Positions 9,221 to 48,600 of a DNA stretch of 64,000 bases are shown one piece after another. The first letter of the stretch is position 1; each line of letters begins with the position of its first letter. Source of the DNA: a virus (Duplodnaviria > Caudoviricetes). Position numbers and translations under genes: made by a program. The notes below the pieces were generated by a model. The model was not told where the DNA came from. It saw nothing but the letters and a program-made list of their open reading frames with translations, and searched no databases. The DNA lies in IMG/VR virus record IMGVR_UViG_3300047297_000146, positions 1,835 through 65,834 of that record. The stretch is one strand, 5' to 3'.

Positions 9221-9834
9221 TTACCGTATTTTGGTAATTTTGTCTTTAGCCTTACTAGCTGCGAGACCAGCCTTGTCTCCATATTTAGCAGCGTTATTCA
9301 ATAGGAGGGTTTGTGGATGCGTTTTGGAAACAAAACCTGCAAAATCTGTTATCTTTTTATCAACTGTGTTTACGGTTTTTTGTGTAGCGCTACCTTTATA
9401 CCAGCTTGGAGCTTTAGGTAATCGCCCACCAATGTTAATCGTATTATCTGCTAAGTCGTAAAGCATTGGGTTTACAAAGTCATCCATTGCCATGTCAGTT
9501 GCAAAATTGATTCCAGCTTTAAGAGGATTAATTACTTTTGGCAAAAATCCTAAAGAACTAGTACCTCCAGTTTCTGGTATTAATGCAGCAGATGCAGCGT
9601 TGACTGCCATCTCTTCTAGTGCATCTTTACCAAAGTTTGCAAGCTCAACTAACCCAGTTCCTACCCCGGCATTAATCTTATTTCGTATTCCCGGCTTAGA
9701 AAATATATCTGCTTGATCTGGTGCTCTATTAAAGTACCAAGATGCACCTTCAGATATTCCACTGAGTAAGCGCTTTGGATTTGCTTTTACATCGTTAACT
9801 TTTGACATAATATATTTAGTAAAATCATTTTCCA
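9221..9834 (-). CDS. Hypothetical protein
   Basis: ORF; start at MENDFTK preferred because of GGAGG upstream. Confidence 0.55.
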
Positions 9835-12800
9835 TTTTTCTTAGCCTCCTCAGCACTGAATCTACGTATTGCTGCTTTACCATATTCTTTTAAAGCTAAA
9901 AGAAGTACAGCGGCAAAACTCATTTTCTTGGCTTTTCCAATTAATCCGCCAAACCCCTTAGCTTCCGCGTCGGCAATGATTTTGTTTTGAACTGCTTCAG
10001 GAATCTTAATACCCTCAACGTCTGGTGTGTTATCTTTACCTACCGACTTTGCGCTAATAGAAGTGTATACTTCTCCTTCACGAAAATACCTCTTGCTTGC
10101 TCGCACACGTGAAACCAATTGTGTTACTAACTCACGTACATTCTTGGTATCAATCTTGCCTTCATTGACTTGTTTTACAAAATCTAAATAATCTCGTTTT
10201 CCAATCCAGAATTGCTTACCTTCATATTCAAATCCAAGCCGATTACCAGCTTGTACTGGAGCTGATTCAAATGTTAGCCGTTTTACTATGGGTTCTTTTT
10301 TAATTAATTTTTGATCAATTAACTCAGCATCCATTCCAGCTGGTAACATTCGCGATTGTAAAAATGCACCTCTGTTGTATAACGGCACTTCAATAACTTT
10401 TCCACCGATGCGGTATGTTTCTGATGTAGTAATATCTTTTGTTGTTGTTTTTCCGTCATCACCAGTTGTTGTAACTGTTGCCCCTAAAACTGTATATCCG
10501 TCTTTTAATTTTTTAGATTTTCCATCAGCCTCAGTGGTAAACGTGTTAGCTGTTTGATTTTTTAATATCTTTCCATTAGGGCCTTTGACCTCATAACGAT
10601 ATTCATTTTGGTTTTCTGTTAATATGTCAAGATACTCAACTGTTGTATTGTTAATTTTCCATTGTAATGCGTCTGCGTAATTTGGCTTGTTCGGCATCCT
10701 GTTTTCTCTTACCCATTGCGGTGCCTTAATTGTAAACTTTGTTGCAGCCGGTACAACGTGTCCACCCGGTGTCAAAGTAAGGGCACGGCTGTCTTTTAGT
10801 TGTTTGTTAATTTCTTGCCGTGACGGTCCTGACGGTCCTGACTTCTTATCAAGTTCATTTGGGACTACTTCTGACCAAAGTGGATAATTCCTTAATACAT
10901 ATATTCGTGCTTCATCAGGTAAACCATAAGTATATTCAACCCATTCTTTGGCATTCATGGATTCCCATTTACTATCAATAGATTTCCAGAGATCGCCAAG
11001 TTTTACTTTTGTAGCATCGACATCTAAGCCAATCGCTTGCGCAATCTCAACCTCTCGCGCTAATCGTTTTTTATCATTAGCTGTTAGCTTTTTGTTCCAC
11101 TGCTGGAAAGCTTTTCGTTGATCTTCGGGACTCATGTATACCGTAGGTAAGTTAGTCCGTTCTATCTTCTTAGCCGACTCTCCAAATAAAACTTGAAACG
11201 GGACTTTATTACTAGCAAGATTTGCTTGATTGTAAGTTCTTGATTCCTTAGTGTTTAGTCTGTCAATTTTATTTAATTCAAATAATGGAGACGCACCTAA
11301 CTGTGGAGCAACCGATTTAAGATGCTTATTTAAAACAAGAGTAAGCGTGTCTAGTCGTTGACTTTCATTGTCTGTTAGATCATTATCTAACGCTTTATTT
11401 TTTAATGCCTTATATTGCGAATAAACAGTCTCAAGCGGTAAATCTTTTCTTGTTCGCCAATCACGTGCAACTGATTGTGCAGCTTTTATTGCTGGATCAT
11501 TTGAATTAAATTCTAAAAGCAACCCAGATAATTCACCTTCTGATGTTGCTCTTTTTAACTTTTCCGCAAGACCAGATAACTTTTTAGCTTCGCCTATCTT
11601 AGCAACGCGACCAGTATCTCCTTGTTTTAAAGCATCTACTTCTTTCTGTAATTTGTCCTGTAGTGGTCGTAACTTTTGAAAAACACTATTGCGTAACGCT
11701 GCTACATCATCCTTTTGTGTTGTCAGTGAAACTTTGCCCTTGGCATCGAGTATTGAAATTACTTCACCAACTGCATCACTAGGCAACGTCTTAGGGATTT
11801 TATTACCGTCTGCGTCCGTTACTTCTTTGACGTCATATCCAAACTTTTGTAAGAACGCAGCTTTTTCATTGCGTATCTTGACAGTGTCTTCAGCAGACAT
11901 TTCAGTTGTATTGAAAAACTTAGATATGTCATCTTGAATTTCTTGTGGCGTACGTATACGACCAGATCCTTTGCCAGCAAAAGCATCAATTCGATCTGAC
12001 ATGCGACTACGTAATGTGTCAGAAAATGTCAGTAATGCCTTACTGGTTTTATTGCCCTCAATTAACTTTTTGAGATACTCCTCAGGATTAGCTCGACCAG
12101 AATCTTTTAATCCTTTCAACACTTCAGCTTTTAAAGCTACAACGTTTTGTTTGTTTGTTTCGTTAAGGTTTTCATTAGATGTTAGATCAAGTAAATCGCG
12201 CACTGCGCTAGATAGTTTCGTCGCTCCTCTATTTACTCTAGTGCCTCTGGTAATACCACCATATGTATTACCTTTAGTTGTACTATCAAGAACTTTTAAT
12301 GCTGAATTTAAATCTACTTCAAAATTCTTTGCTTTGACAATTGCTGTTTCTAAACCAGTTTCAATTTTTTGTTTACGCAGTGGGCGCTGGCTATTATTAC
12401 CTTGCTTTACATACTCGGTAGCCACAACTGATACGGCTGTAAATTGACCTGTCTTTGCATCTTTTTTCCAATCAAACGTAAACTTGACATTCTCGTTTAA
12501 TTTATGACCAATAGTTTTTCCTTTGTCATCTTTTATTTCTACTAAATAACTAGGTGCTCTGGCATTGTCATTTACTAATTCGTAGTCTGGATTAATTACG
12601 GTCCAGTTAACGCCTTGTGCGCTTGCGAGAAAACTATTAAATCCTAATCGTGTAGGGCGACCAACACCAATAGTATTTGTTTCACCTTCTCGGTAACGAG
12701 TTAATCCCTGCTCGTAATAAAATTGCTTATCACTTAAAGATAGGCTGTCAAATCCTTTATTACGAACTTGCTCTCTTAGAGTTCTATAACGTTCGCCGAT

Positions 12801-15800
12801 TTTGTCGTCAGCATTTTGTACTGCTCTACGGTCATCTAGAATCTGACTATGAGATTCTTCAGTTGGGCTATTATATGCAAGGTCATATATACGGCTTTGT
12901 AGTAATGATAGTGCATCAGTTCCTTTTTGCTGCGCCCTTACCTTCTTGCGTTCTAATGCAGCAATTGCTTGATCAATTTTTCTTAAACCCTCTGGTGTTT
13001 GTCCAGATTTTGTTTTTTGTGTTTGTAACTTAGCAATGTCGGCATCAGTATTTTTTACTACAGCTGCTTGAATATCCGCATCTCGTTTTGCAGCATCAAG
13101 TGATTTACTAGTATTTTCATACCAGCGTTTAGCAAATTCAACGTAATCGTAATTTCCATTTTTTTCAGCACTTGCAATTTTTGCCGACAGCACTGTTTCA
13201 ATTTGTTTTGTGTCACCAGCTTTTTCACTACCACCAATGTCACCACCAAGGGCTTCAACAGCTTTATTGTAGATTTCTTTTCCGGAATCAACTTGCGCTC
13301 TGTTTGTAGATTCAGATGGCCTAAGGCGTTCCGAAACACTAGTATCTGCTGGTGCTGCATATCCAGCAGCAATACTGGTCATTGATGTACGATACTTTTT
13401 AAATACGTTATCAATGTCTGCGTCAGATACCGTGCCTTTCATCCATTCAGTTGTTGCGGATTCTACTATTTGCTCTCTAATGCTAGATACCATAGTGTCA
13501 AACTTTACTTTGTCTTCTGGCTTAATATCAAACTTAGTTAATGACGATTTGATCGAGTCATCAAACGCATTTAATACCTGTGTCTTAAAGTTACCTTTTG
13601 GAGCTTCTCCGCCAGCTACTTGTTCTCCAATACTGTTTGTTACGCCAAGTATGGATTTTTTTGCGTCGCCAAATATTGTGTTTACAATATCCATACTTCG
13701 CTGCACTCTATCAAGCGCTGTTCTTTCAGTCTTGCTTGACCGACCACCTACGGCACCCGTACCTCCGGGTATTGCATCTGCATTTTGCATTACTGTTCCA
13801 GCAGAAGTGGTAGGTATGTATCTTGTTCCACCTTCAGGTGTGACTTCCATGGTGGATGCCATGGTCCTGAATCTTGCCGGAGTTCCTATTTGCAAAGACT
13901 TTAATATCTTGGCTTTTAAATCTGTCTTGTTGTAATCAGATGCCTTGATGCCAAACATCGATAAAAAGACGTCATCAGTTTTTTTATCTACAGCTGTTGC
14001 TTCCTCTAACCGTGAAGCATACAAACCAACTAACGATGACATCTGCTGGGGAGTCATCTTTATGTTTCCGTTGTATGGAACTTTATCTACTGCACTTTTA
14101 ATTAAATTTTGCAGATCAGTACGGTATCTAGAGTTTTTACCAGCGTAATCAAACATGCCTTGCAAGACTTGTATGCGACTGATCTGATCTGACCGTACTG
14201 GTAATAATGGTTGGTTAAAATCATTCTCACCTGTAGGTAATTTAGCAAATGATAAACCAGACTGCTCAACTGCCGTACCTTCTAAGTTACGTGCTTGTAC
14301 AGCAATATCATTAAGTACGCGCTTCTTGCTCATCCATGAAGACTGCTGTGCGCCACCGGGTATTACTGCATCAACAGCTTTAAAGGTATCTGTAATTAAA
14401 CTGTATGTACCTTTTGATGTACCACCTGTGGTGACACCACCTGTTTTTCCAGCGCGTACAGAACTAATGTCTGAAGTAATCTTAGGCACAATATCAGATT
14501 CAATATCGTAACTATTCATGCCAGCAGTTACGAAATCATTGACATCATCAATGCTTTGGAATAACTTGCGTCCGACTTGTTCTAGTTGTGCTTCGCTAAG
14601 ATTTAAACCTGAGGCCATTGCACCAGCAAGTTCTGGGCGAGATGCAATACGTCCACTGTTTGCACCAGTAATACCTTGTGGTGCTTGTGTTTGACTTCCA
14701 GATACGTTGGAGCTTATGTCATACATGTAAGGATCTTCCTTACCTGCACGTGTCATATCCCCTACGAGGGTGCCCTCCTTCTGACCGTATAAAGCCTTTA
14801 CACCACCGGGGGTTAATGCGGAATACACATCGTCGTTATCAGGATTATTTGGGTCAAAACGTAAAGCTGCTTCATCACTCAATGATGGATCAATATCCAT
14901 CGCTCCAGATACGTATCGCTTCATGCGTGTCTGGCCAAAGAAATCTTTTAACTCTTGTGGAGTAACTTGAGTAGTTGGATCAGCACCAGCTTGCCCACCC
15001 ATTCGCTTTACTAAGTCTTGGGCTTTTTTTGTATTAAATAAACCTTGACCATCAAACTGCTCGTAGGCATCATCAATTAACGCTTGACCTTGTGGCGAAT
15101 CCATAAACATTTGGACTTGCCGATCTTTATTGCCCTCAATAGTTGGTTTTGATAAATCGCCATATGCCGATTCAAATATGTTTAAAGTCTTGCGTGAGTT
15201 ATTTGCTGTAGGAGATCCAGATTGCGCATCTGTTCTAAGTTCCGTAAATCGTCCTTGAACGTAATCGTATAGAACACCACCAATAAGTTTTTTACGTACA
15301 GCTTCTGGACTTGCATCTGCCTTTTCTTGATCAAGTTCAACAAGTGATTTATTTGTAACGTATGGCTTGATAACTTTTGATGCTTGTTGAGCTAGATAGG
15401 TTTGCGTTTTAGGATTTCTAAAATCTTCATCTGTATAGTCAGCAAGTACTTCTAGATAATCTTTTGCACCAGTAACACCAGCATTATCACCCTTCGCGTA
15501 GGCAGTAGTTAAATACATAACGCCATTTGCGTATGCATCTGCCATCTTTCGCTTAGTTGGTTCGCCAGTGTTATATAACTCTGCAGTTCTATTAATTAAC
15601 TGTAAGAACTTGTCATCACCAATGACGTCTGTCCTGTTTGTTCCAGCAGTTTGTTTTGATGCGCCAGTAGCCTTACCAAGCCACGACTGCATCTTAGTAA
15701 TCAGATCAGCACCAGATGCTAGTTGACCAGTACTTTGAGAACGCAAAAACATGTCTAATCCAGCTGCATGTTTTCCCGCACTAGCATCATCTATTCCACC

Positions 15801-16142
15801 TACATCAATGCGAGTACTAAGACCTGCACCTGATGCATTAGGCATGTCTACTATTCCCTTAGATAGACGAGCCATAGGGTCATAATCAAACCCACCCATA
15901 GGAGGTAAACCCGGAAGACTAGGCAATCCGGGCATACCCTGTGGCATTGCTGGCGCTGGCTGTGTAGTCTGTGGCTGTTGACTCGCCATTGGCGGTATTG
16001 ATGGAAGAGACGGTGGTTGTACTTGTTGCCCCTGTGTTGCAGGCACGGGACTACCGCCAGCAGGTGTTGCTGGTTGCTCTTTATCTTTATCCGACATAGG
16101 AGCCGAATTACCCATAATCAAACTAGACAGTAATGACGCCAT
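9825..16142 (-). CDS. Giant hypothetical protein, 2105 aa (possible internal virion protein)
   Basis: Uninterrupted ORF with GGAGGT RBS and Pro/Gln-rich N-terminus; no catalytic motif recognised. Confidence 0.7.
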   Translation of the reverse strand: MASLLSSLIMGNSAPMSDKDKEQPATPAGGSPVPATQGQQVQPPSLPSIPPMASQQPQTTQPAPAMPQGMPGLPSLPGLPPMGGFDYDPMARLSKGIVDMPNASGAGLSTRIDVGGIDDASAGKHAAGLDMFLRSQSTGQLASGADLITKMQSWLGKATGASKQTAGTNRTDVIGDDKFLQLINRTAELYNTGEPTKRKMADAYANGVMYLTTAYAKGDNAGVTGAKDYLEVLADYTDEDFRNPKTQTYLAQQASKVIKPYVTNKSLVELDQEKADASPEAVRKKLIGGVLYDYVQGRFTELRTDAQSGSPTANNSRKTLNIFESAYGDLSKPTIEGNKDRQVQMFMDSPQGQALIDDAYEQFDGQGLFNTKKAQDLVKRMGGQAGADPTTQVTPQELKDFFGQTRMKRYVSGAMDIDPSLSDEAALRFDPNNPDNDDVYSALTPGGVKALYGQKEGTLVGDMTRAGKEDPYMYDISSNVSGSQTQAPQGITGANSGRIASRPELAGAMASGLNLSEAQLEQVGRKLFQSIDDVNDFVTAGMNSYDIESDIVPKITSDISSVRAGKTGGVTTGGTSKGTYSLITDTFKAVDAVIPGGAQQSSWMSKKRVLNDIAVQARNLEGTAVEQSGLSFAKLPTGENDFNQPLLPVRSDQISRIQVLQGMFDYAGKNSRYRTDLQNLIKSAVDKVPYNGNIKMTPQQMSSLVGLYASRLEEATAVDKKTDDVFLSMFGIKASDYNKTDLKAKILKSLQIGTPARFRTMASTMEVTPEGGTRYIPTTSAGTVMQNADAIPGGTGAVGGRSSKTERTALDRVQRSMDIVNTIFGDAKKSILGVTNSIGEQVAGGEAPKGNFKTQVLNAFDDSIKSSLTKFDIKPEDKVKFDTMVSSIREQIVESATTEWMKGTVSDADIDNVFKKYRTSMTSIAAGYAAPADTSVSERLRPSESTNRAQVDSGKEIYNKAVEALGGDIGGSEKAGDTKQIETVLSAKIASAEKNGNYDYVEFAKRWYENTSKSLDAAKRDADIQAAVVKNTDADIAKLQTQKTKSGQTPEGLRKIDQAIAALERKKVRAQQKGTDALSLLQSRIYDLAYNSPTEESHSQILDDRRAVQNADDKIGERYRTLREQVRNKGFDSLSLSDKQFYYEQGLTRYREGETNTIGVGRPTRLGFNSFLASAQGVNWTVINPDYELVNDNARAPSYLVEIKDDKGKTIGHKLNENVKFTFDWKKDAKTGQFTAVSVVATEYVKQGNNSQRPLRKQKIETGLETAIVKAKNFEVDLNSALKVLDSTTKGNTYGGITRGTRVNRGATKLSSAVRDLLDLTSNENLNETNKQNVVALKAEVLKGLKDSGRANPEEYLKKLIEGNKTSKALLTFSDTLRSRMSDRIDAFAGKGSGRIRTPQEIQDDISKFFNTTEMSAEDTVKIRNEKAAFLQKFGYDVKEVTDADGNKIPKTLPSDAVGEVISILDAKGKVSLTTQKDDVAALRNSVFQKLRPLQDKLQKEVDALKQGDTGRVAKIGEAKKLSGLAEKLKRATSEGELSGLLLEFNSNDPAIKAAQSVARDWRTRKDLPLETVYSQYKALKNKALDNDLTDNESQRLDTLTLVLNKHLKSVAPQLGASPLFELNKIDRLNTKESRTYNQANLASNKVPFQVLFGESAKKIERTNLPTVYMSPEDQRKAFQQWNKKLTANDKKRLAREVEIAQAIGLDVDATKVKLGDLWKSIDSKWESMNAKEWVEYTYGLPDEARIYVLRNYPLWSEVVPNELDKKSGPSGPSRQEINKQLKDSRALTLTPGGHVVPAATKFTIKAPQWVRENRMPNKPNYADALQWKINNTTVEYLDILTENQNEYRYEVKGPNGKILKNQTANTFTTEADGKSKKLKDGYTVLGATVTTTGDDGKTTTKDITTSETYRIGGKVIEVPLYNRGAFLQSRMLPAGMDAELIDQKLIKKEPIVKRLTFESAPVQAGNRLGFEYEGKQFWIGKRDYLDFVKQVNEGKIDTKNVRELVTQLVSRVRASKRYFREGEVYTSISAKSVGKDNTPDVEGIKIPEAVQNKIIADAEAKGFGGLIGKAKKMSFAAVLLLALKEYGKAAIRRFSAEEAKKNGK

Positions 16143-19510: not shown

Positions 19511-19591
19511 TCCCCAGTACGGGACTCGAACCTGTACTCTTTGCAGAAACGGATTTTAAGTCCGTCGTGTCTACCATTCCACCAACTGGGG
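19511..19591 (-). tRNA. tRNA-Leu(UAA)
   Basis: Acceptor CCCCAGT/ACTGGGG plus discriminator A; anticodon arm ACGGA-CTTAAAA-TCCGT; long variable arm; GGTTCGAGTCC with one T-stem mismatch; CCA not encoded. Confidence 0.9.
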
Positions 19592-20803: not shown

Positions 20804-20826
20804 ATCTGTACCTCAGAGCGATTATA

Positions 20827-20898
20827 CTCCTACTGCTGGGATCGAACCAGCGACCGTCCGGTTAACAGCCGGATGCTCTACCGCTAAGCTAAGTAGGA
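20827..20898 (-). tRNA. tRNA-Asn(GUU)
   Basis: Acceptor TCCTACT/AGTAGGA plus discriminator G; anticodon arm TCCGG-CTGTTAA-CCGGA; GGTTCGATCCC; CCA not encoded. Confidence 0.93.
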
Positions 20899-20916
20899 AT
20901 GTACCGTAAGTATATC

Positions 20917-21552: not shown

Positions 21553-21846
21553 AATCGAAAGTATAGCATGGTACAGAGTGTAGCAAAACCGTATAGTCAC
21601 TGCGTTCTAAAAGGATCTTAATGTTTTTTCTACGGGGAGAAACAGTTTCTCCGGTGGGAGAAATAGATAGAGGATAGCTGAGAATATATGTTTTGGAGTC
21701 ACTACTGTGCCGAGCCAACCGGGGCACCCCCTTGCCATGCCGGGGTCTAACCCCCGGTACCCCACCCCACGTGACTGTGCCCTAAATCCCGGTCTACATA
21801 CATGGTGTGGACGCCCTTCGGGGTCGTCCGGTTTACATTCCCTTTA

Positions 21847-21910
21847 TTATGTTCACATAATCATTCACCCGATTATGTCCGACGATGGCAGGTTATAGCC
21901 GAAAACACAA
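21847..21910 (+). ncRNA. Hammerhead ribozyme HH1, type III, variant core
   Basis: UGUUC^ (cut after 21854); stem I ACAUAAUC/GAUUAUGU; core CCGACGA (U4C) plus extra U; stem II GGC/GCC; GAAA; stem III AACA. Confidence 0.7.
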
Positions 21911-21927
21911 AAGGAAAACTAGACATA

Positions 21928-22278
21928 ATGGCAACGACAACGACAACGCCCGCAACGCCAGCGGTATACGCTGGCGCACAAACGGCGTACACTAAAGCGC
22001 TACAAAGTATTGACAATCACGTATCATTGAATATGCTGATTACAAAGTCAGTAGCAAACCGGATTATACAGCCCGTTGAATGTGCATACATTCAAGGTAT
22101 CAAACGTCGAAAAACAACCATTGACGCATACAAAGCGGTTATGCAAGTATTATCCGCTAAACTTGCGCCTGTGCTAGATACTACCGGCAAGGATTACGAT
22201 TCTATCGCCGCCAGCATAAAGGGATTGACGGCGGACGCGCTTGGGCAGGCAATGCTCGGTGTAGACGGGGACGCATAG
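21928..22278 (+). CDS. Early hypothetical protein
   Basis: AAGGA RBS then ATG at 21928 (MATTTTTPATP...). Confidence 0.7.
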   Translation: MATTTTTPATPAVYAGAQTAYTKALQSIDNHVSLNMLITKSVANRIIQPVECAYIQGIKRRKTTIDAYKAVMQVLSAKLAPVLDTTGKDYDSIAASIKGLTADALGQAMLGVDGDA

Positions 22279-22286
22279 TCCCCGCA

Positions 22287-22321
22287 GGCACCCGGTGTAA
22301 GATACCGGGTGCCACTTTTTT
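22287..22321 (+). terminator. Intrinsic terminator
   Basis: GGCACCCGGT/ACCGGGTGCC followed by ACTTTTTT. Confidence 0.7.
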
Positions 22322-22353
22322 CGGAAAAAACAAAAACAAAAGGATAATGAGTC

Positions 22354-22641
22354 ATGTCATTCGCACAACACACACAATCGGAATCACGTCCTGTTACACA
22401 GGTGGCAATATGGAAAGTGTTCACCATGTACGGACCAGACGCAGCAAGTAACGGAACAGACTTTGTCTACCAGATGTCAGACTGGACGGGTGGTCGCTTG
22501 CTCAATGACCTACTCCACGCAGCGAAGGGGCACACAGACACGCCACTGACGTTTGAAGACGCATACGTCATTGCAACATATCAGTGGAAGGGCAACCCTG
22601 ACACGTTCGAGTGGAAGGGCGCCATGTTCGAGAAGTGTTGA
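22354..22641 (+). CDS. Early hypothetical protein
   Basis: A-rich leader with AAGGA RBS; 95 aa. Confidence 0.65.
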   Translation: MSFAQHTQSESRPVTQVAIWKVFTMYGPDAASNGTDFVYQMSDWTGGRLLNDLLHAAKGHTDTPLTFEDAYVIATYQWKGNPDTFEWKGAMFEKC

Positions 22642-22674
22642 TGTCAATGGGGGGCGCAAGCCCCCTACCTTTTA

Positions 22675-22734
22675 ACGTGTCCTCATTGGGTGATGCCAAT
22701 GAGCTGACGAGGCCAGTCTACAGGCGAAACACGT
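22675..22734 (+). ncRNA. Hammerhead ribozyme HH2, type III
   Basis: ACGUGUC^ (cut after 22681); stem I CUCAUUGG/CCAAUGAG; CUGACGA; extra G; stem II GCC/GGC; GAAACACGU. Confidence 0.88.
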
Positions 22735-22760
22735 AACACACACAAAGGAAACTAACCGCC

Positions 22761-23003
22761 ATGCAATTCAATGGCACTTTCATGACGTCTAATCGTCGCT
22801 TCAGCTTCTCAATCACAACCCCAACTGCATTGACGCAGACAACGATCAAGATAACGAGCGCACAAGGTGAGTTCTCGGTAACACGTCACATTGACACCTA
22901 CGCTGAACTCGAAAAGAACATGATTGCGGTAGCGCGTATCATCGGTGGCGGTGATGACGCAAGCGTATTGGCGTTGGCTCGGATGATTGGAGAAAGCAAG
23001 TGA
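22761..23003 (+). CDS. Early hypothetical protein
   Basis: AAAGGA RBS; 80 aa. Confidence 0.65.
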   Translation: MQFNGTFMTSNRRFSFSITTPTALTQTTIKITSAQGEFSVTRHIDTYAELEKNMIAVARIIGGGDDASVLALARMIGESK

Positions 23004-23131
23004 AGAAGTTCCTGAACAATGGTCTGGTGCGGTTTATCCTTGATGGATTGACTGCAGTCATTATCGTCGCTGGTTTGCTGTTCATCTATTGGGGGCTGTC
23101 AACACTCCCGATGCATAGATACGGTCACTAA
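23000..23131 (+). CDS. Small single-TM protein (43 aa, not in ORF track)
   Basis: GTGA overlap with upstream stop, GGAG RBS; MKKFLNNGLVRFILDGLTAVIIVAGLLFIYWGLSTLPMHRYGH. Confidence 0.6.
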   Translation: MKKFLNNGLVRFILDGLTAVIIVAGLLFIYWGLSTLPMHRYGH

Positions 23132-23162
23132 GAACTACGGGGTGGTGCTAACGTGCCACCCC

Positions 23163-23221
23163 AACGTGTATCTATAGGGTGATTCCTATGGACTGATGAG
23201 GCAGTCAAGCCGAAACACGTT
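23163..23221 (+). ncRNA. Hammerhead ribozyme HH3, type III
   Basis: AACGUGUA^ (cut after 23170); stem I UCUAUAGG/CCUAUGGA; CUGAUGA; stem II GGC/GCC; GAAACACGUU; canonical core. Confidence 0.93.
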
Positions 23222-23262
23222 TAAAACCTTGTCAGATATCAAAACAAACAAAGAGGTATCCC

Positions 23263-23886
23263 ATGGATAACCAGTTCCGTTTCAACATATCCTTTAGCCC
23301 ATACGGGGCTATCCCGTCACCCGTCGTGTACACCGATGCAAAGCATGATGTAGATAACATCTGTGCTGCAATCCTCGGAGAATCATTACGCCGTCGCACG
23401 TACTATGACGCTCAGGTTGAAGAGCGTCCATACGTAGACGAATATGCAATGAGCGATGCTCGTATGTATCTGCAATGCGCATTCATGTGCGTAGTACAAG
23501 AACAGTACGGTGAGGCGCTTAACTGGTATGACATGGCACACAAGAACTTCTGTGGCTACATTGACCCAGCCACCGTATCCACAATGCACGGCGCCGTTTG
23601 GATGGTGCGTGATGATGAGAGTTGGGGTGTGTACATGAAGGCTGATGTTGTTACCGGGTTTGGTAACACAACTGCCAACATTAAAATCGCCGACATCGAA
23701 CCGCACCCATATAAACCGGGCAAGTACACAGCCACTGTACTCGACCGCATGGAAGAGTTGAGGTATGGACAAGACGGGTGGTTTGCGCACCTTGATAAAT
23801 CAAGAGCTGCATACAAACAACAACAGATCGATGCTAAGGGCATCGACTTTACATACGATGACGATGTTGAAGGAGAAACAAAGTGA
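23263..23886 (+). CDS. Early hypothetical protein
   Basis: GAGGT RBS; 207 aa. Confidence 0.7.
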   Translation: MDNQFRFNISFSPYGAIPSPVVYTDAKHDVDNICAAILGESLRRRTYYDAQVEERPYVDEYAMSDARMYLQCAFMCVVQEQYGEALNWYDMAHKNFCGYIDPATVSTMHGAVWMVRDDESWGVYMKADVVTGFGNTTANIKIADIEPHPYKPGKYTATVLDRMEELRYGQDGWFAHLDKSRAAYKQQQIDAKGIDFTYDDDVEGETK

Positions 23887-24323
23887 AGAAGAAGAGTTTA
23901 TTGAAACGCATTGAGACCATTTGGCTTGCCAAGCAGGTCAAGAACGAGATGATCAACTTCCACAAGGGTGTTGATGAGTGCGTTAGGGATTTCGGCTACA
24001 GGAAGGAGGAGATGTTGGACTTCCCTAAGTGGCCATACGCACTCAAGACCCCAGACGGGTCTTACGTTTGCACACCCAACCCAGACAAGAGACTGATGCT
24101 GTGTCTGTTCCTTACTGCTGATGAGGCAGAACAGATGAAAGCAATGTTTCATGCGTCAACTGGGAATGACTGCGAGGTTGTGCAACCAGAGCACAACTTC
24201 CCATTCAGGAAGGACATTGTCCTTATGATCAAGGACTGTGGGTTTGAGATGTGGTACGGCACATATCGCAGTGTGTACCACCTGCAAACCATCAAGAGTA
24301 TGGAAGCCACTGGGCTTCTTTGA
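23883..24323 (+). CDS. Early hypothetical protein
   Basis: GTGA coupling, AGGAG RBS; 146 aa. Confidence 0.7.
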   Translation: MKKKSLLKRIETIWLAKQVKNEMINFHKGVDECVRDFGYRKEEMLDFPKWPYALKTPDGSYVCTPNPDKRLMLCLFLTADEAEQMKAMFHASTGNDCEVVQPEHNFPFRKDIVLMIKDCGFEMWYGTYRSVYHLQTIKSMEATGLL

Positions 24324-24383
24324 GACGAAACTTCTCCCATGCGGAGAAGTCTGTGGGACATAGCTACCCCACACTGATGAGTC
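24324..24383 (+). ncRNA. Hammerhead ribozyme HH4, type II
   Basis: GAC-GAAA-CUUCUCC/GGAGAAG-UC^ (cut after 24351)-UGUGGG/CCCACA-CUGAUGA-GUC; canonical core. Confidence 0.92.
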
Positions 24384-24423
24384 AGGCTTAACAAGCAGCT
24401 GCATAAGAACAAAGGAAACACTT

Positions 24424-24630
24424 ATGAAAAACACAAGCGAGATTCTCGCACTTCAGACAGAAATCAGTGAACTATCACGTGGCATGTACAAAACATGGTC
24501 ACGCACGGGTAACACACTACGTGCCAATGAGGAAACCCTCAAGAGTCTAACAAGGAAGCTAGACCAAATGATTCGTGATGCACACAATGCTGACGAAAAA
24601 GCAGCACGTAGCAGGAGGTTAGGTTACTAA
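24424..24630 (+). CDS. Early hypothetical coiled-coil protein
   Basis: AAAGGA RBS; 68 aa. Confidence 0.65.
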   Translation: MKNTSEILALQTEISELSRGMYKTWSRTGNTLRANEETLKSLTRKLDQMIRDAHNADEKAARSRRLGY

Positions 24631-38895: not shown

Positions 38896-39675
38896 CAATG
38901 TCACTGTTTTGTTTACATCGTTGATTGTAATATAACATCCCAACCAAAGAGATAAGTCCCTGACACCAATGTAACGCTTGCCATCTCGCGTAATCAAAGG
39001 TGCAGGGATGATCTCACTACCCCACATAGCGCCATCGTCTGTCGCTTTCAAATTAACAAGCACCTCATGTGGTGTAAAAAACATGTTCAAAGCATTACGC
39101 AATGGAGCGTACACACGACTTGCATGGTTAATACATTCAACCTGACGATTCTTTACTTTTAAAACCCACTCTACATCCTGCTGTATCATTTTTGTCCAAC
39201 GAATAAACTTAAGACTATCAGCAGTTCTATTTGCATAGACATTAGGACGCCGAGCAACTAAGTATCCATTTCGACTACCGTTGTTATTACTGTTGCCTTC
39301 TATGCTTCCAATAACCCCATCAGCACCTTCAGTGTCAACAATGCCAATGTGATATGCGTCATCACCACGATGGCACACAAACAAGTCTCCGGCAGCCGGA
39401 GATGATGTCATTAGCTGTCGTTTTCTTGCCCAGCTATAAACCACGTCACAATCAGCAGTAATAGGCACAGGCCAGTCAATATTATGAGCATCTTGAAACT
39501 CTTTGCCGATAGCAGAAACAAATGAGCAACACCAAAAGCTTCCTAATGGAACGTTGCTTTGACGATTCCATTTATCAATTAAATCCCCACGATTACTACC
39601 AAATGGCTCTTCCGACACACCAACATATTTATTAGCAAGAGTCAAAAACTCTTTTGCTAAATCATTACTATTCAT
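38884..39675 (-). CDS. Endolysin: CHAP domain plus putative cell-surface-binding domain
   Basis: WCCSFV, HIGIV and IEGNS (CHAP); C-terminal YAPLR and YIGVRDL repeats resemble the copper-amine-oxidase N-terminal domain. Confidence 0.8.
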   Translation of the reverse strand: MNSNDLAKEFLTLANKYVGVSEEPFGSNRGDLIDKWNRQSNVPLGSFWCCSFVSAIGKEFQDAHNIDWPVPITADCDVVYSWARKRQLMTSSPAAGDLFVCHRGDDAYHIGIVDTEGADGVIGSIEGNSNNNGSRNGYLVARRPNVYANRTADSLKFIRWTKMIQQDVEWVLKVKNRQVECINHASRVYAPLRNALNMFFTPHEVLVNLKATDDGAMWGSEIIPAPLITRDGKRYIGVRDLSLWLGCYITINDVNKTVTLSKP

Positions 39676-42600
39676 TATTGCCTCCTCCGTTATATTGCAT
39701 TAGTGCTCTGGTCACATTGTTCAATGGTAACCGTATCTTCTGCTTCTCTTTTTCTCTAGCTTGAGATTCTGATGCTGCAATTCCAAACGTGGCGTTACTT
39801 GGATCTTTAACATCCCAGCCAGTAAATATGTTTTGAGGTTCTTTGCGCATCATTTCAAAAATATTTGGATAGTCGTACCAGTCTTTAATCATGTACGCAA
39901 AACGTCCAAATGTCATACTACTGTTACCTACTTGGACTGGCTCCCTGTTAACCATCCTGTATCCCTTAGGCTCATACATAACGTTAAACCCTAATAGCTT
40001 TGGAACAGTAGCCTTCCACCATAATTCATTAGCTTGTTCCTTACTTACTCGTAATTGATTAGGAACATTACCAGAACGAATCATTTGATCTATAGACATA
40101 TTCTGCTTAGCTGCTTCAGAGAACATAGCTAACTTTAATAAGTCTTCGTAATAAGATCTCTGATGAGCAAGCGTCATTGTGTCCATTGCTAATCGACTTT
40201 GCTGTGGAAATAAATACCCAGTCGGATGGAAATAAAATGGTGCTCTTACATCATTTTCTACAGCAACTTTTAATCCAGAATCACGTTCAAATGTAGGCAA
40301 ACCCTTGAATGACTTGCCAGTTAAATTACTAATGATGAATTGACCACCATTGTGGATTTTGTTTTTAATTAACTGTTTTGCTAATCCATTAAGAGCAGCT
40401 TCAGTTTTCTCAATTGGTCCGTAGTTTTCTTGAGAGAAAGCTTCAGCAAGAGGTTTTATATTTTGAGCAAGACGCCCAAGGACTGGTAACTGTACAGTCC
40501 AGTTGTCGTTTAATTCAACATAACCTAGCCTCTTACTCATAACATCTAGCCAACCAGTCTTATCTTCTTCTTCATCTGGTCGTTCTCGTTGATGACGATA
40601 GAAGTTAGCTGTTGCAGTTATCGCACCAACAATAGCCCACGTCGCTAACGATTTGCCAATATCTGCCTTCCTTTGCCGAGTAGCCCACTCTGTACCGTAT
40701 TGCTCCATACGTAAGTCACTCTCAATATCAAAGACATCTCCCTTTAACCACCAAGGTCCTTTATCTGTAGCAACTCTAGCCCATTCATTAATAGACTTTT
40801 TAGCAGCAGTTCCCGGTCCGCTAAATCCGTAGTACTGATTAAAATTCCTTGTGTATGACGGTGCAGTCATAAAGTAATTAAACACACTGGAAAGAGATCT
40901 CCAAATAGGAGCCTGTGTTTTACTCTTAGCGTGAGATCCAATTCCAATTTCTTTAGCCACTAACGATATACGAGCCTTAATATCTCGATCAATTTCATAG
41001 TCTTTTAAATCTACATTGTTAGGATCTAACTGACGTTCTCGTGCTCGTTTGACAGTAAACAATGCCTGTTGAAGCATAGATAAATCAAGAATCAACTGAC
41101 GAGTCATTTCAGCTCTGCGCCATAGTGGCACAGTAGCTCCAAGGACACCAGCTGTAAATACGTTTTCACGTTCACTTTCCCATGGAGTATCTATGATTGA
41201 CTTATATCGTCCCGGAGATGCAAGCATGTTTGCCTTTGATCGTCTATACCAGTCAGAGTAACTACTCTGCATGTAATACGTGTCAATCAACTCAGACATA
41301 CTAATAGGTGTACCCATGCTGTGTCTTGCATTGAATCGATCAACTGTATGGTTCATGATGAAATCGTAATAGCGAGAGTCTAAATTCATAGCGCTATCAG
41401 TCCATTGATTACCACCCGCTAACCTTCTTTGTTGACGAGAGCCATGCCACAGACTACCAAGTACTAAGCCAAGGTCTGCGCTAGAAAATGTAACAAGGGA
41501 TGGAGCGGATAAAGCAAGAGCTTTAAAGGTTTGATAAGGAGCACGTGCTAGTAATGAACCAAGCTGAATTGCAAATGATGATAAGTCAAGACCTAACACA
41601 CCTCGGAATATCTGCTGCAATGGACTCAGTACATATTTATTTACGTTGTATGCTGCCTCATTTACCTTTGGTGACATTGAGAAATAAACATCGTTATCTT
41701 TACCGTCTAATGTAATTGCTTCACCATCTTTGACGGAAGTCTCATAAGGAGTTCCCTTCAATGGGTCAAGAACTAACTTGTCATATATGTCACTTGAAAC
41801 TTGCAATACAAGGTTATCTTTTCCACCAGACTGAAGCATGCCACCTTTTGTCTTAGGGTCCCTATGATAAGTAACTGTTTCAGGTACACGATATGCTCGT
41901 TCCTTAGCGTCTATAGCAAGATCATCGAGTGCACCCTTAGTTGATTCAACGTATGGGTCTTCTGAATCATTGACGTGTAATGCGCTTTGCTTACGTAATT
42001 CGGGAATGTTATCCGGATTACCATCAAAGTAACGTGGACTACTTGAGAACCAAGTGCCAGTGCTTGCATCCTGCATTAAGTCAGATTCATTGTTGAACAA
42101 CATCTTGTGCCCAACCTTATTGAACTCAGCATGCTTTGGATTATCAGTATTCCTGTCTTGCGCTAACAATAACTTAGCAACATGATATTCCTCTTGCAAC
42201 ATACGATTGTCAATAATGCCCTGACGCTTTTCTTCAACTACAGTCATAGCACTTGAACGCTCAAATGGATTCAAGACCATGTCCATGAGACCAATAGGCA
42301 TCTGAGTACGATAGTTATCTGCATTCTGCCAGTTGTCACTTGTATCTACAAAAGACCATTTAGCTTCTTTGCTATCATACTCACCCTTAATAACATGCAT
42401 GCCGGTGTTTGGAGTTGGCACATCAGGATCAAATATTGGTGCATTTAATTCCGATATCTCAGCAACAGATATCGGCAACATAAAGTAAATGGGTTCACCA
42501 GATAGGTATCCGTAACTAGCTGCGCGTTCACCAGCTAATGCAACAAGTGCATCATTAACCTTTTCGACTCCATCAAATCCAAATAATTGTTTAGCATTAA

Positions 42601-45600
42601 TACTTGTAGCATTTGGTTTTTTATCAAATGCATACGGGTCTTTACGTGGTGTATCGTTTGGCTTTCGAGTCCAGTTGTATTTAAGGAAATCATCTACATC
42701 TTGAATGTTTTCATATGACTCAACCCACTTATTACTTTGTGAGTCAAACCGTCGTGACTGCGCAACAAGATGCGTTTTACCGGTCTGCATATTGACTCTA
42801 TACAATGCACCAGATTTAGAAGCACCAGTTTCATCAGCAGCAATATCTCTATCTGGAGATCGGATAATAACCTCAGACTTGTTTGCATCGGTTGTTACTA
42901 GCTCGTAACTTTTCCAGTTTCGTAACGCAGCATTGCGAACCTTAGCATCAGTACGAACCATGTGTTCGACTGTATTAAATAAGTTTCTTGCACGAACAAC
43001 ATCTGGTGGAGTTACACCATCACCAACATCGCCAACGAGAGCAGACATAAACCTAATCATCTCCGCTTCATTAGTAAATATTTTAGAGGCTACGTGGTCT
43101 AACACTGCATGAGGTACAACCTTCAATCCAGTCTGAGCACTGAACTGTAATTTGATGTCACTCTGATTCGCATAAGCGCGAATCGCTTGTTCAAATTGTT
43201 GAGGCGTAGCATACTGTCCTGCCAACTGCCTAAGAACAGTATCAACAGAGATCTCTTTACCACTCCTAACAAATGTCTTACTAAGCCCTGACCGATTGTA
43301 AGCATTTTCACCACCAGCCGTAGGAGGAGCACCAACAGGTACAAGTCCGGGTTCAGTAGTTTCACCACGTAAATCTGCATGTAGTTCAGCAAGTCGTTGA
43401 CTTAAGTTTCTAGTAGTACCTTCAACAAGCCCACTACTTTCACCAATCCATCCACTTAGTTGTGTACCAATCCATTGGCTGTAAAACTGAGTAAATGCTT
43501 GATTGAAATCTTCAACATGCAGACCAAAAACTTGATCAAAGTAAACACTAGCATCAACACTAACACCGTCAATATTAATCAAGAATGAACGTGGATTTAC
43601 AGCACCAGCTTCACCTACAGGAACAAGTGCAGTAGTTTTATTCATTACACTAATAAGACTTGTTGCAGCAGGGTCAGAAAATAGTTCTTCTCTTGCAGTA
43701 ACCAACTCCTGATAGAACTTTTGTAAGTCTTCAAATGATCGGAATGATTGTTCAAATACAGCATTTGCTATAGGGGCAATGCCATTCTTTGCGAGCTTGT
43801 CAGCACTAAATGGGACAAATGAATACCACCCTTTCCCAGCACGGATAACATTTCCAAGACGTTCAGTAAATGATAACCTGCTGTCTCCAGCCATAGAATT
43901 ACCTACAGTGTAGGCATGCGCTTCAGTAACACGATCTATTAAACTTAATGCGGTAGATCTACGACCATCATCTTTTATGTTTCGTGCCCATCTATATAAA
44001 TTACGTGAGTGACTTTGATTACGTAACCATGGGTGAGTTCCAGTTTGTTGGACAGCGCGGATATCAGCAATTGGTGTTCTTGCCACTATATTAGCAATGT
44101 CTTTATCTAACGACATGGCTAAAGGAGCAGATACAACCTTATCCCACTTTGTATAGTCACCTGTTCGCATAGCTTCAGCTAGTGCATCATTAACTCTAAG
44201 CTCATACTCATAAGTTCTTTGACCAGCAATGTTCAATACATTCTGATCAATTTTTGCAAGCATATTGTAGAGAACGGACATAAATGCTGGATTACCAGCA
44301 TCTCCAGAGCCAACCATATGGAAGTTACGACTACTGTCAATGTAGTTGTGACCAACAACATATCTAACTGGAACATCCAACTTGGCTATCTTGTTTTCAC
44401 CAAGGTCTACATCCTTACCTTCGTATAATGTGTGTAAGCGAATCTGAGCAGTGCTTTCAACTACATATCCATAATCACCACGTGTCTGGCTTTGCATCAT
44501 ACGCCGTAGGCCATTTGCCATATCAACAATGCTTAGTCCATACCACTGTGTTCCATCGCTCTTTTTACGGCTACTTATAAACCAGTCTTTGCCATTGACC
44601 TTAAATGGATTCACATCCATACCAGCAGTTACCCGCTCACGAGCTATTCCTACAACTTGACCCGTAACAGGATAACCCTGCTCGTTAGCTGTATTCGTAT
44701 CTTGCTTAACAAAGTTTTCGTTTCCATTTATGCTGAGGCGATACTGCTTTCCATATTCAAACTTATTGCCAGATGAATCCCTCATCTTGCTTAATGCAAC
44801 TAACTTGTCAGCAACTTCATTAACAACATCTCTGTCTTTGATTACGTTATCCAAAACCTTTACTAATGCGTCACGACCACCGTCACTAATCAAGTTTTTG
44901 TTCGACATGATTACGTCATGTATGTCAACAACGTTTGTGGCTGTAGAAAATTTCTTGCCTACATCATTAATAAAGTGCACAAAGGACCCATGCTTAAGAG
45001 GGTAGAACATACGGTTCACACCCATAGCGCTAGGAGTTTTAACTAAAACAGATGATGGAGAATAATAGAATACGTTAGTTGGCTTTCCACCTACCATTGC
45101 GTATGGTCCATATTCGCTACTCAGTGTTTTTGCAATAGGAGCTAGTACTCTCTGCAAGTTAACAAGTGAACTAGTTAAATCTTCAGCAACAGACAGCCTG
45201 TCATTTGGGTTGTGCACTACTCCGCTTTGAAGTATGAAATTCATCATACTTGTCGCAGTCATTTCACCAATGATCATCTTGGCGTTATAAATCTGTTGTT
45301 CGTTAAATCCACCTTGTGTTGCAGCAAAGTCCTCTATGGTTTGCATCCTAAAGTTATTCTGATCATCCAAACGTGAGAATTCATTTAGTCGCGTAGTTTG
45401 CTTGTTGATAAATGCATGGACTAATTCTTCTTCAGGTGAAACCTTTTCGTCTTTCTTGCGACCAAGTGGTGGCATGACAGCTTTTAACCATTTAAGTTGT
45501 TGAGTATCTGGCAAAGCAAAGTAAAGATGGTGGCTTACTTCATGTGCCATGGTTAATGCACTCTTACCAAAATTCTTAGATGCTGCCATAAACAAAATGG

Positions 45601-48600
45601 ATGACGCAGCATTAGCAATTTTAGTACGTGTAATAAATCCATTGACATCATTGCCAGATTGGACACGACTGTATCCCATCTCCGACATCATAGACTCATG
45701 TGCAAAGAATAATTTATGATGTTGATTATAGAAGTCTTGTTTAAGTTGAGCTGCTCGCAATGCAATCAACTGTCTCTGTTGATCATTGCCTAAAACCTCT
45801 TCTGTAAAGATTTGCTTGACACTAGTTGATTCTAAAACCTTTGACATTGTAAGCATGTCAACGCCTAGTAATGATGCTAGTGCTTTATATTCATCAATAT
45901 CATAGTTGTATTCTAAGTCTGTACTAATCTTCTTAGTAGACATACGAGCAGCGTACGTGTCGTAAACCTTGGCTAAGTTACTAGCAACAACTCGTGCATC
46001 AGAGTATCGATTAATAATCTTGGATGGCGAATCATCTTTACGTCGAGACATTGCACGATAGTTTTTTGCTAGTGATGAAAACTGAGCTTGTTGCCTATCT
46101 GTGTACGTTGCATCCTTTGACATCTGTGTATACAGAGTTGCCAGTGCCTCTGCATCATTCATAGTTACAACGTCATCCGGCAATTGTTGATAAATGTCAA
46201 CTGCCTCAAAGTTGTCTATAAAACTTACTGAGTCACCAAGATTTGTAAATTGATCAGAAAGATTAAACCTGTTTTGATCTGTCGGTTGAGTGACATCTCT
46301 TACGATAGATGCAATACGAGACTTAACTTTGTAAGCAGCATTATGGCTATCTTTGTTTGTTACACCAAAAGAAAATTCAGATGCGTCTGCGGATGACCTA
46401 AACAGTACACCGCGTGTCTCATTAAATCCTTCCGCAATAGACATCAAGTCAGACATCGTGAACACAAACTGTTGGTTGCCACTCTCAGTACGCTTTGTGT
46501 CTACATAGTTGGACAATGCGTCCATAAACTTTTGCTTGTCGCGAGGCTTAATTAAATTCAACATCTTTGTAACATAGTTGTTGAATAAGGCTTGCCCCTC
46601 CATGATCTCTGTCTTTGCTGTACCACTAGGCAATGTGTATTGACCATCAACACCCGGAATAACAGCAGCTCGCATAACAGGATTCTTTTCAAACACAACT
46701 TTGCGTTTTACGTAGTCCTCTTGTTTCACGCGCTCAAAATAACGACGTGCAATATCTGGCCCTACAACTGCTTCCATCAAAGCCTTGTCTACGTCAGCGT
46801 AATCTAATTCAGCTTTACTTGCTGCATCTAATAGCGTTGTAAGAATAATCTTCTCAAGGCCAGCGCGGTTTCCAGCCATTAATAATGGTTGTGTTTGCGG
46901 TGAGTCTCCTGTTCGCACAAACTGCATGCCTTGCCTTAGTGCATCAATAAGACTCGCCGATTGAACTTCGACTGCAGGTGTATATGCCACTGCAGGGTCC
47001 TGTCCAATCTCTAATCCTTTATCACCTAAAACAAAATCAGCAATCTCACTAGCCATTGTTTGAGCATCTTGAAGTAACATCTCGGCTTGTTTTATCGAGC
47101 TGCCTTCAATTCGACGCGCATTCATATTGTTGATAAGTGACTGCACTGAGTCTTGAATTAACCTGCGCCGTGATCCATCAAACGTAACGCCAAGATATTT
47201 AAGACCATCAGTAGACCCGGACTCTACAATTTGCATTGCCTCCGCAATAGATGAACGCTCACCAATAAATACACCAGCACGACGTATACGTTCCCTATTA
47301 GAAGCTACATAATTGTTTATGCTTCCAAGTACATCTGCTGCTGCATCTGGAGATACTCGTATAGAGTTTTTAATTAACGATGTAATTAATTCTTTAGATG
47401 CAAATTCAATAAACGTTTTGATATGAGCTGGTTGTATTTGTTGAGACCGGTAGTAATCCATTGCGTCATCAAGCAATCCAACAGTAGGTTCAAGTGGGTC
47501 ATCATTCTTTGAAACTAATGTGTCAACTAATTTTAGTAGTTGATCCATAGCTCCACGTATTGAGGTCAATCGTTGTGGATCACCACTATTCAGTTTACTT
47601 GCCAGTATAGTTGCGTGATCATTAAACTTATTGAAGTCCTCTTGTGTTCTAAATAATCTGTTGAGCGTGAAAGGAATCAGTGAAGCTCCATCATTTCCTT
47701 GTGCATTTAATAAGGCAAAGATTAATGACTCACGAATATTATTATCACCAGATCGCTCTACGGCTTTTACAACATCTACAAACCAAAGTAACGGAGACGA
47801 TAGAGCAGCTACAACGTCACGTGCCTGTTCTGGTAAAGATGCAAAAGCATCTAATGCAGCATTTAATTGTTGTCTTTCTTCGTGTGCTAACTGGGCTGTC
47901 TGTAATTGATGAGTACCAACTAAAGCATCCTCAACAGAATTAACTGTCACGCCGGGTAAGACTGAATTGGTATCAACATCATCCATGAATGTGCGAACAT
48001 TACCAACAATCTCCATCATGGCTGGCAAGTTATCTGCAGCTGCAGTAATACCTTGCTGGTCGTACATTTGTTCTGGATGTAGAACTCCATCTGGAGCTGC
48101 AAGCATAGCTGATGTTGCAATCTCATCAAGTCTAACTGGAACAGATAAATCAGGTGAAGACTGATTGTCTTGTAGCCGTTTAGTTAAAACGGCAAGTTTT
48201 GCAGTAGCAACACGCTTGATCATTTCACCGACGGCATTGTTAGCACGTTGGGCATTAGCACGAATAACATCTACAGCAGAAGCATCTGTAATATTTACGT
48301 TAGCACGACGGCTGACAATTTCATTTCCACCAGAAGCTATTTCAAAGAAATAACCTAGCTTAGCGTCGTACATTGAGGTCCGTAAATCTTCAATGCCAAC
48401 TTCACCACGAGTAGCGGCTTCAGCATATAGTTCTTTTGCGCGAGCAATAGATGATTCGTATGCTGTTTTAGACGTATGCCAGTTGCTAAAATCAGCAGCA
48501 TAAACACCCGACACACCTTCAAATGGAAGTAATGCAGATAGAACCTGTACTTCATGTGGTAGTACAGATAACTTTTCCATCATCCAGATAGCACCCTTTT

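Follow-up and report, generated by a model that had tools for sequence, protein, structure and literature searches.

We analysed a stretch of 64,000 nucleotides (nt) of the virus record IMGVR_UViG_3300047297_000146 (Caudoviricetes; positions 1,835 to 65,834), which comprises most of this 65.8-kb record and is called the window in the following. An operon on the plus strand starts at position 21928, and a motif search combined with a helix-checking script over the whole window located four hammerhead motifs, HH1 to HH4, among its first genes, all on the plus strand, and none elsewhere in the window. By their structure HH1 to HH4 are real ribozymes, for which self-cleavage is predicted, and the simplest reading of the locus is a four-fold self-processing array, of a known kind, in which a hairpin, a ribozyme and a Shine-Dalgarno sequence (SD) form the repeated unit. 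Protein-based searches for the locus yielded four other IMG/VR lineages, here called B to E, and a scan of metagenomes added one contig, F; the window itself is lineage A. The elements of the operon, all on the plus strand and with helix lengths in base pairs (bp), are the following.

21809–21829, plus strand: GC-rich hairpin 1, 8 bp with one bulge and a UUCG loop, upstream of HH1, kept in five of five lineages.
21830–21849, plus strand: pyrimidine-rich linker of 20 nt between hairpin 1 and HH1, with the anti-SD UUCCCUUU at 21838–21845.
21850–21907, plus strand: HH1, type III, cut after C21854 (C21854/A21855), core CCGACGA at 21879–21885 followed by an extra U at 21886.
HH1 helices: stem III 21850–21853/21904–21907, stem I 21855–21862/21871–21878, stem II 21887–21889/21898–21900, GAA at 21901–21903.
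21928–22278, plus strand: gene 1, ATG at 21928, SD AAAGGAA at 21910–21916.
22287–22321, plus strand: intrinsic terminator-like hairpin with a run of six U, 3′ of gene 1.
22354–22641, plus strand: gene 2.
22648–22667, plus strand: GC-rich hairpin 2, 8-bp stem and GCAA loop, after the stop codon of gene 2.
22668–22674, plus strand: linker CCUUUUA, with the anti-SD CCUUU at 22668–22672, also a short U tract after hairpin 2.
22675–22734, plus strand: HH2, type III, cut after C22681, core CUGACGA with one extra G after A9.
22761–23003, plus strand: gene 3, ATG at 22761, SD AAAGGAA at 22744–22750.
23139–23162, plus strand: GC-rich hairpin 3, 10 bp, directly abutting HH3.
23163–23221, plus strand: HH3, type III, cut after A23170, core CUGAUGA, SD 30 nt downstream.
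23263–23886, plus strand: gene 4, SD at 23253–23256.
23883–24323, plus strand: gene 5.
24324–24383, plus strand: HH4, type II, cut after C24351, core CUGAUGA, directly after the stop codon of gene 5.
24424 onwards, plus strand: gene 6, SD at 24411–24417.

HH2, HH3 and HH4 conform to the consensus core C3 U4 G5 A6 N7 G8 A9 plus G12 A13 A14, each with GAAA, while HH1 departs from it by U4C and by one additional nucleotide after A9. From HH1 to HH4, stem I measures 8, 8, 9 and 6 bp and stem III 4, 6, 7 and 8 bp, stem II being 3 bp long throughout, and the cut-site triplets read UUC, GUC, GUA and GUC. The hammerheads have three helices, an A15.1–U16.1 pair and a nucleotide other than G at the cut site. 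Since only five relatives could be found, comparative power is low. Nevertheless, the fold of HH1 is kept in lineages A to D with 60 of 60 cells paired, and 7 of its 15 pairs have changed on both sides, a value that none of 500 shuffles reached; for this count, the stem III register of lineage D was set by hand. RNAalifold recovers the same three helices unaided. The core of HH1, with C4 and one extra nucleotide, is common to lineages A to D, and HH1 of lineage E (L225:2600-2700) keeps all three helices around the core UUGAUAA, i.e. with a U3–A8 pair and the normal U4. Covariation of this pair is described for hammerheads in PMC3088659. Stem I of the lineage E ribozyme carries a 5-nt bulge. 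For HH2, stem III reads ACGUGU/ACACGU in three lineages and GUUAUGU/ACGUAAC in the other three, so that both strands differ, as read by eye.

The core of HH1 also occurs outside this group of viruses. An unrelated, GC-rich 77-kb phage contig contains a type III hammerhead with CCGACGA and an extra U on its minus strand (L076:1258-1317), placed 8 nt ahead of an SD. The recurrence of a core combining U4C with an extra nucleotide suggests, at the level of sequence, a working variant and not decay.

The type III units share one order of elements, which begins with a stable GC hairpin (loop of four bases) and continues with the hammerhead, the SD and the start codon. The loop of hairpin 2 is of the GNRA type (GCAA, GUAA or GAAA) in five of six lineages and UUAG in lineage B. 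Other phage type III hammerheads were gathered by pattern scans and a custom filter, giving two comparison sets that contain some related members and are not independent of each other, the second having been chosen for a GGAG close to the ribozyme. Among the matches listed, a perfect GC-rich hairpin ends 0–2 nt before stem III in 12 of 21 hammerheads of the first set (the 21 include L282, which with 113 nt and a huge stem I loop is probably no real hammerhead), against a background of 4.4% among 10,500 positions drawn at random from these loci, and in 15 of the 21 an SD with start codon lies no more than 75 nt from the ribozyme. Such an abutting hairpin is likewise found in 11 of the 25 listed matches of the second set. 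Unrelated phages in which a GC hairpin lies 0–1 nt before stem III include those of loci L122, L162, L184, L196, L260, L409 and L430. At the position of hairpin 3 and HH3, lineage C (L222:3880-3920) shows a plain GC hairpin (GCAA loop) that is followed by a long U run. This replacement of HH3 by a plain hairpin and U tract indicates that the hairpin is a 3′-end element in its own right, and the lack of HH3 in this lineage indicates that ribozyme units are gained or lost between close relatives.

We propose a model in which transcription of the operon from 21928 would yield a multi-gene RNA with self-cleavage at the four intergenic hammerheads. Each cut would leave the upstream message with a terminal hairpin and a 2′,3′-cyclic phosphate, and the downstream message with a 5′-hydroxyl and a short, defined leader ahead of its SD. 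At the type II ribozyme HH4, its own stem III would serve as terminal hairpin of the upstream product. At HH1 and HH2, the pyrimidine-rich linker would in addition base-pair with the SD, weakly prolonging stem III and partly closing the SD in the uncut, ribozyme-folded RNA; after the cut, the short 5′ piece would dissociate and the SD would open, tying the translation of genes 1 and 3 to earlier cutting. The expected effect is small at HH2; a larger one at HH1 presupposes that HH1 folds and is active. This model is built on motifs and helices, on covariation and architecture, and on complementarity and predicted folds, and from these we infer transcription through the sites, self-cleavage and effects on ribosomes or on RNA stability. 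To the combination of processing of the multi-gene RNA as primary function with a lineage-specific, secondary SD pairing we assign about an even chance of being correct.

Several observations weigh against this model. At gathering score, Rfam returns no hammerhead match in the window, all four ribozymes falling below the cut-offs: HH4 comes closest with 36.3 bits against the cut-off of 37 for RF02276, HH3 is mis-registered by the same family at 23.3 bits and gives the best RF00008 score with 16.2 bits (cut-off 48.5), and HH1 and HH2 are unreported even at E ≤ 10. A sigma-70-like site with TTTACA at 21832, an 18-nt spacer and CATAAT ending at 21861 (10 of 12 matches) overlaps the 5′ half of HH1 and, if used, would give an RNA without the HH1 5′ strand. 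The stabilising roles ascribed to the hairpin, the 5′-hydroxyl and the cyclic phosphate are general knowledge, carried over to this locus. Finally, U4C lowers activity in vitro considerably (Perreault 2011, PMC3088659). For this reason HH1 is possibly a slow ribozyme; from its sequence it may be one, its activity itself being uncertain.

The absent Rfam match, the core CCGACGA in place of CUGANGA, the reported loss of in vitro activity and the promoter-like site at 21832–21861 can also be taken together to mean that HH1 is inactive, and that its U4C core marks a structured 5′ leader or a sigma-70-type promoter from which nothing is released. However, the same core with an extra nucleotide is found with covarying helices in four lineages and again in the unrelated contig L076, and lineage E keeps the helices with a U3–A8, U4 core. 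The promoter-like hexamers are not kept in the relatives, as judged by eye with the promoter scan confined to the window, and the U4C variant still permits viroid infectivity in vivo, according to PMC3088659. We therefore consider an inactive HH1 quite improbable.

The original prediction held that a sequence 5′ of the cut site extends stem III of HH1 and masks the ribosome-binding site of the first gene. The complementarity can be read directly from the sequence: UUCCCUUU (21838–21845), located 9 nt upstream of the HH1 cut, pairs with AAAGGAA (21910–21916), the gene 1 SD, which precedes the ATG at 21928 by 12 nt; the helix comprises CCUUU/AAAGG (5 bp) and UU/AA across one bulged C. The similar pair proposed for HH2, CCUUU (22668–22672) with AAAGG (22744–22748), is present as well, with CCUUU 5′ of the cut after C22681, and both linker–SD helices continue stem III. 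On the plus strand of the genome, CCTTT occurs in 2.6% of 25-nt windows and any GG-containing 5-mer complement of AAAGGAAA in 6.8%, so that two matches among four hammerheads are modestly above chance. With 20 nt at HH1 and 7–9 nt at HH2, the linker between hairpin and stem III is itself unlike the common phage layout. The motif ACATAAT occurs both at 21855–21861, in the 5′ strand of HH1 stem I, and at 21924–21930, across the start codon of gene 1, and in folds of the window this repeat lets the start region pair with 21844–21853 or with the 3′ strand of stem I. An alternative 10-bp helix between 21844–21853 and 21923–21932 was set aside as chance, the ACAUAAU repeat being absent from the relatives.

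The further claim, that cleavage and release of the 5′ strand unmask the ribosome-binding site, found partial support when precursor and product were compared with the ribozyme fold imposed. With stems I–III enforced, the probability that the SD core is fully unpaired rises at HH1 from 0.0002 in the precursor to 0.186 in the product, and at HH2, more weakly, from 0.08–0.29 to 0.40. Without constraints, HH2 is predicted to open from 0.06–0.09 to 0.38–0.40 if the precursor begins at the hairpin. We additionally swapped the native linker for random genomic k-mers with the ribozyme fold enforced (150 trials each), and equally closed SDs resulted from 1% (HH1) and 3% (HH2) of plus-strand k-mers and from 1.3% and 3.3% of k-mers from the antisense strand. 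For the 5′ piece after the cut, the predicted binding amounts to −7.1 kcal/mol (HH1) and −8.2 kcal/mol (HH2), corresponding to dissociation constants in the micromolar range; given such weak binding, the piece would fall off.

Taken at full strength, these results would describe a strict ON-switch, in which the linker–SD helix is the selected purpose and self-cleavage must precede any translation of genes 1 and 3. For such a switch speak the position of the window linkers in the lowest 1–3% of random replacements, the ready departure predicted for the 5′ piece and the mere presence of a linker, which is unusual among phage units. The CUUU/AAAG contact of HH2 is invariant in six of six lineages, and the folds pair linker and SD in all six; since the contact never varies, it proves nothing by itself. 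The changed SD AAAGAGGU at HH2 of lineage C is matched by a singly bulged helix of 7 bp (P 0.0002 vs 0.051), and the HH1 linkers of A and D, although different in sequence, each fit the flank of their own SD (CCUUU/AAAGG in A, UUCUUC/GAAGGA in D). Replacement controls in the relatives tended in the same direction, if more weakly, the share of random replacements with an SD closed no less tightly than by the native linker being 0.05–0.13 (HH1) and 0.02–0.05 (HH2) in lineage B, 0.37–0.53 and 0.03 in C, 0.007–0.047 and 0.08–0.15 in D, 0.007–0.087 for HH2 in E and 0.12 for HH2 in F. The strict switch is thus faced with an HH1 of lineage C at 0.37–0.53, and with values of only 0.007–0.15 in B, D, E and F.

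Further results speak against SD masking, and against the strict switch in particular. Unconstrained folds show no unmasking at HH1, with 0.13–0.23 in the precursor and 0.19–0.20 in the product, and the unconstrained opening ratios of HH1 in lineages A to D amount to 0.7–1.4, which counts against the original prediction. At HH2 the unconstrained effect is dependent on context, since it is gone (0.36 vs 0.40) when 45 nt more of upstream sequence are included, and the predicted effect at HH2 is 1.4- to 6-fold. HH3 and HH4 have no SD–linker pairing, and their probability of a free SD is unchanged between precursor and product. Conservation of the 330-nt leader is high except in the linker of HH1, where it is lowest. 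The predicted pairing of this linker with the SD is found in A and D and weakly in B, but C and E lack it; gene 1 of lineage E has its SD in a local hairpin (AUAAAG/CUUUAU) in cut and uncut RNA alike. The SD of HH2 has changed to AAAGAGG (C, D) or AAAGAAG (F) with no corresponding change of the linker, and lineage F keeps CCC without a GG partner. A formal covariation count of the SD–linker helix is impossible and no compensatory change can be scored, because the linkers do not align. Moreover, a fast constitutive ribozyme would render the masked state short-lived. Of the 25 other phage units listed, 9 are predicted to open at least fivefold on cleavage compared with 9.7 expected from random upstream 25-mers, and the listed units with an abutting hairpin even tend to less masking than random. 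In L171, L324, L413 and L399 the SD lies inside or against stem III, and these few single cases indicate that the principle occurs in nature, not as a rule. We regard a strict switch as rather doubtful.

The shuffling controls bear on a different explanation, namely that the complementarity is incidental, with CCUUUU at HH2 being the U tract of a weak terminator and the HH1 linker a pyrimidine-rich spacer, and translation unaffected by either. In the window, linkers with their own letters shuffled close the SD equally well in 8% (HH1) and 11% (HH2) of trials; over all units the native order is equalled in 1–63% of trials, and in 8–63% for seven of eight units. Since shuffled linkers mask this often, their pyrimidine-rich composition carries much of the signal. 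On this explanation, purine-rich SDs would pair on paper with any pyrimidine-rich tract. A terminator scan flags 22649–22665 followed by TACCTTTTAA, with four U in the first 8 nt after the 8-bp stem, CUUUAUUUU immediately follows the hairpin in lineage D, a plain terminator with the same type of hairpin stands at the position of HH3 in lineage C, and the HH1 linker is poorly conserved. The U tract is nevertheless an imperfect one: in A, B, C, E and F the U run begins 3–5 nt past the stem and is 3–4 nt long, being close and long only in D, and lineage B with UUU only would make a poor terminator. Moreover, the CC ahead of the U run is kept in five of six lineages, and HH1 linkers have no U tract and are yet complementary to the SD in A and D, and weakly so in B. 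Incidental complementarity is in our view a substantial possibility, albeit with less than an even chance.

The spacing of the elements allows one more interpretation, according to which the pairing protects the ribozyme: a closed SD would bar ribosomes until the hammerhead, whose stem III ends 3–10 nt from the SD, has folded and cut. The SD is found −1 to 6 nt from stem III at HH1 of A to D and 6 to 12 nt from it in four HH2 units, and a linker exists only in the close-SD units HH1 and HH2 and not in HH3 with its SD 30 nt away. This interpretation is purely inferential, and many phage units among the matches listed have an SD 0–6 nt from stem III that is unmasked and an abutting hairpin instead of a linker, which leaves protection of the ribozyme very improbable.

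We return to processing of the multi-gene RNA as the preferred reading, in which a coupling of translation to cutting at HH1 and HH2 is plausible in physical terms and above chance in this lineage, but unproven, dependent on the folding model and probably secondary. In a bolder reading, HH1 could act as a natural ribozyme timer, in which a conserved slow core (U4C and the inserted nucleotide) and a stem III extension closing the SD with about 5 kcal/mol would together delay the translation of gene 1, HH2 being a weaker copy. We consider such a timer unlikely; if true, it would make HH1 the first hammerhead from nature known to activate translation in bacteria.

Regarding the surroundings of the array, eight proteins around the site gave no PHROG match and, in Pfam, one sub-threshold Dor1-like match only, while a DnaB-like helicase is encoded further downstream on the same strand as the operon. 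A blastn search of 21600–24500 against a phage collection returned no match. Shortly before the operon, the opposite strand carries two tRNA genes, Leu-TAA and Asn-GTT (19511–19591 and 20826–20899, minus strand), which are the only Rfam matches at gathering score in the window. The window further contains very large open reading frames on the minus strand at 39668–52462, 9825–16142 and 55416–59063, encoding 4263, 2104 and 1214 amino acids, none of the three with a Pfam match; the longest, the only one run against PHROGs, gave no match there either. The size of this frame had raised the suspicion of an N4-like phage, in which the hairpins would be promoters of a virion polymerase. This idea was dropped as unsupported, given the missing PHROG and Pfam matches and hairpins with 4-nt loops and 8–10-bp stems.

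Upstream of HH1, the non-coding region 21600–21830 is far better conserved across five lineages than the adjoining proteins, which share 52–56% identity with lineages C to E and 88% with B. Its long invariant blocks include GGGAGAAATA, AGCTGAGAAT, CACCCCCTTGCCA and ACGTGACT. It may represent a promoter region, the end of the genome or an RNA that is released by cutting at HH1.

Hammerheads in multiple copies have been observed before in prophages, where several of them flank genes and a processing into gene-length mRNAs was proposed (Perreault 2011, PMC3088659). Like those cases, the array described here clusters types II and III between short genes of unknown function and contains core variants, and the role proposed for it agrees with theirs. 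It differs from the cases in that paper by the fixed hairpin–ribozyme–SD layout and by two units with an SD-complementary linker. The main text of PMC3088659 contains neither the word "Shine" nor the word "terminator" and does not mention an abutting hairpin, while its supplementary alignments may hold such units or a core with U4C and insertion. A related case is HHphage of the haloviruses HF1/HF2, a variant-core hammerhead 13 nt before the first open reading frame of an early polycistronic transcript, where a 5′ end was mapped at most 3 nt from the cut site (PMC3088659). Both are variant-core hammerheads ahead of the first gene of a multi-gene transcript, a proposed one in the case of HH1; HF1/HF2 differs by its archaeal host, a core insertion of two nucleotides and an activity that depends on high salt, and its description in that main text includes no SD pairing. 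A 2019 review (PMC6765202) stated that more work is needed to define the purpose of phage hammerheads. For this question the fixed hairpin–ribozyme–SD unit offers a concrete model, in which message ends would be made by the RNA itself without a host nuclease.

In engineered devices, a hammerhead is placed in the 5′ untranslated region of a bacterial gene with the ribosome-binding site in a ribozyme helix, from which it is freed by self-cleavage (PMC12192606). These devices are ligand-controlled and have masking helices designed to be stable, whereas no aptamer is present here. The putative masking helix of the present units comprises 5–7 bp across an internal loop and extends stem III. Those of the engineered devices extend stem I. 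That the locus is a natural counterpart of such an ON-switch, as the original prediction went on to suggest, is physically plausible in this lineage but unproven, with no enrichment of masking among the 25 other units listed, and a natural hammerhead masking a bacterial ribosome-binding site was not found in the literature searched, the scope of which excluded subscription journals and the supplements of PMC3088659. A functional SD pairing at HH1 and HH2 would form the natural counterpart of engineered ribozyme switches of ribosome-binding sites and would give a reason to keep a slow core.

The array as a whole resembles in its presumed outcome two further systems. Early mRNA of T7 is cut between genes by host RNase III, and the upstream messages keep a 3′ hairpin. 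Ribozyme insulators of the RiboJ type are synthetic and place a standard leader in front of an SD. Unlike in T7, the RNA proposed here would cut itself without a host enzyme, and unlike RiboJ the unit is natural. The hairpin–ribozyme–SD unit could also be a compact natural insulator for synthetic operons.

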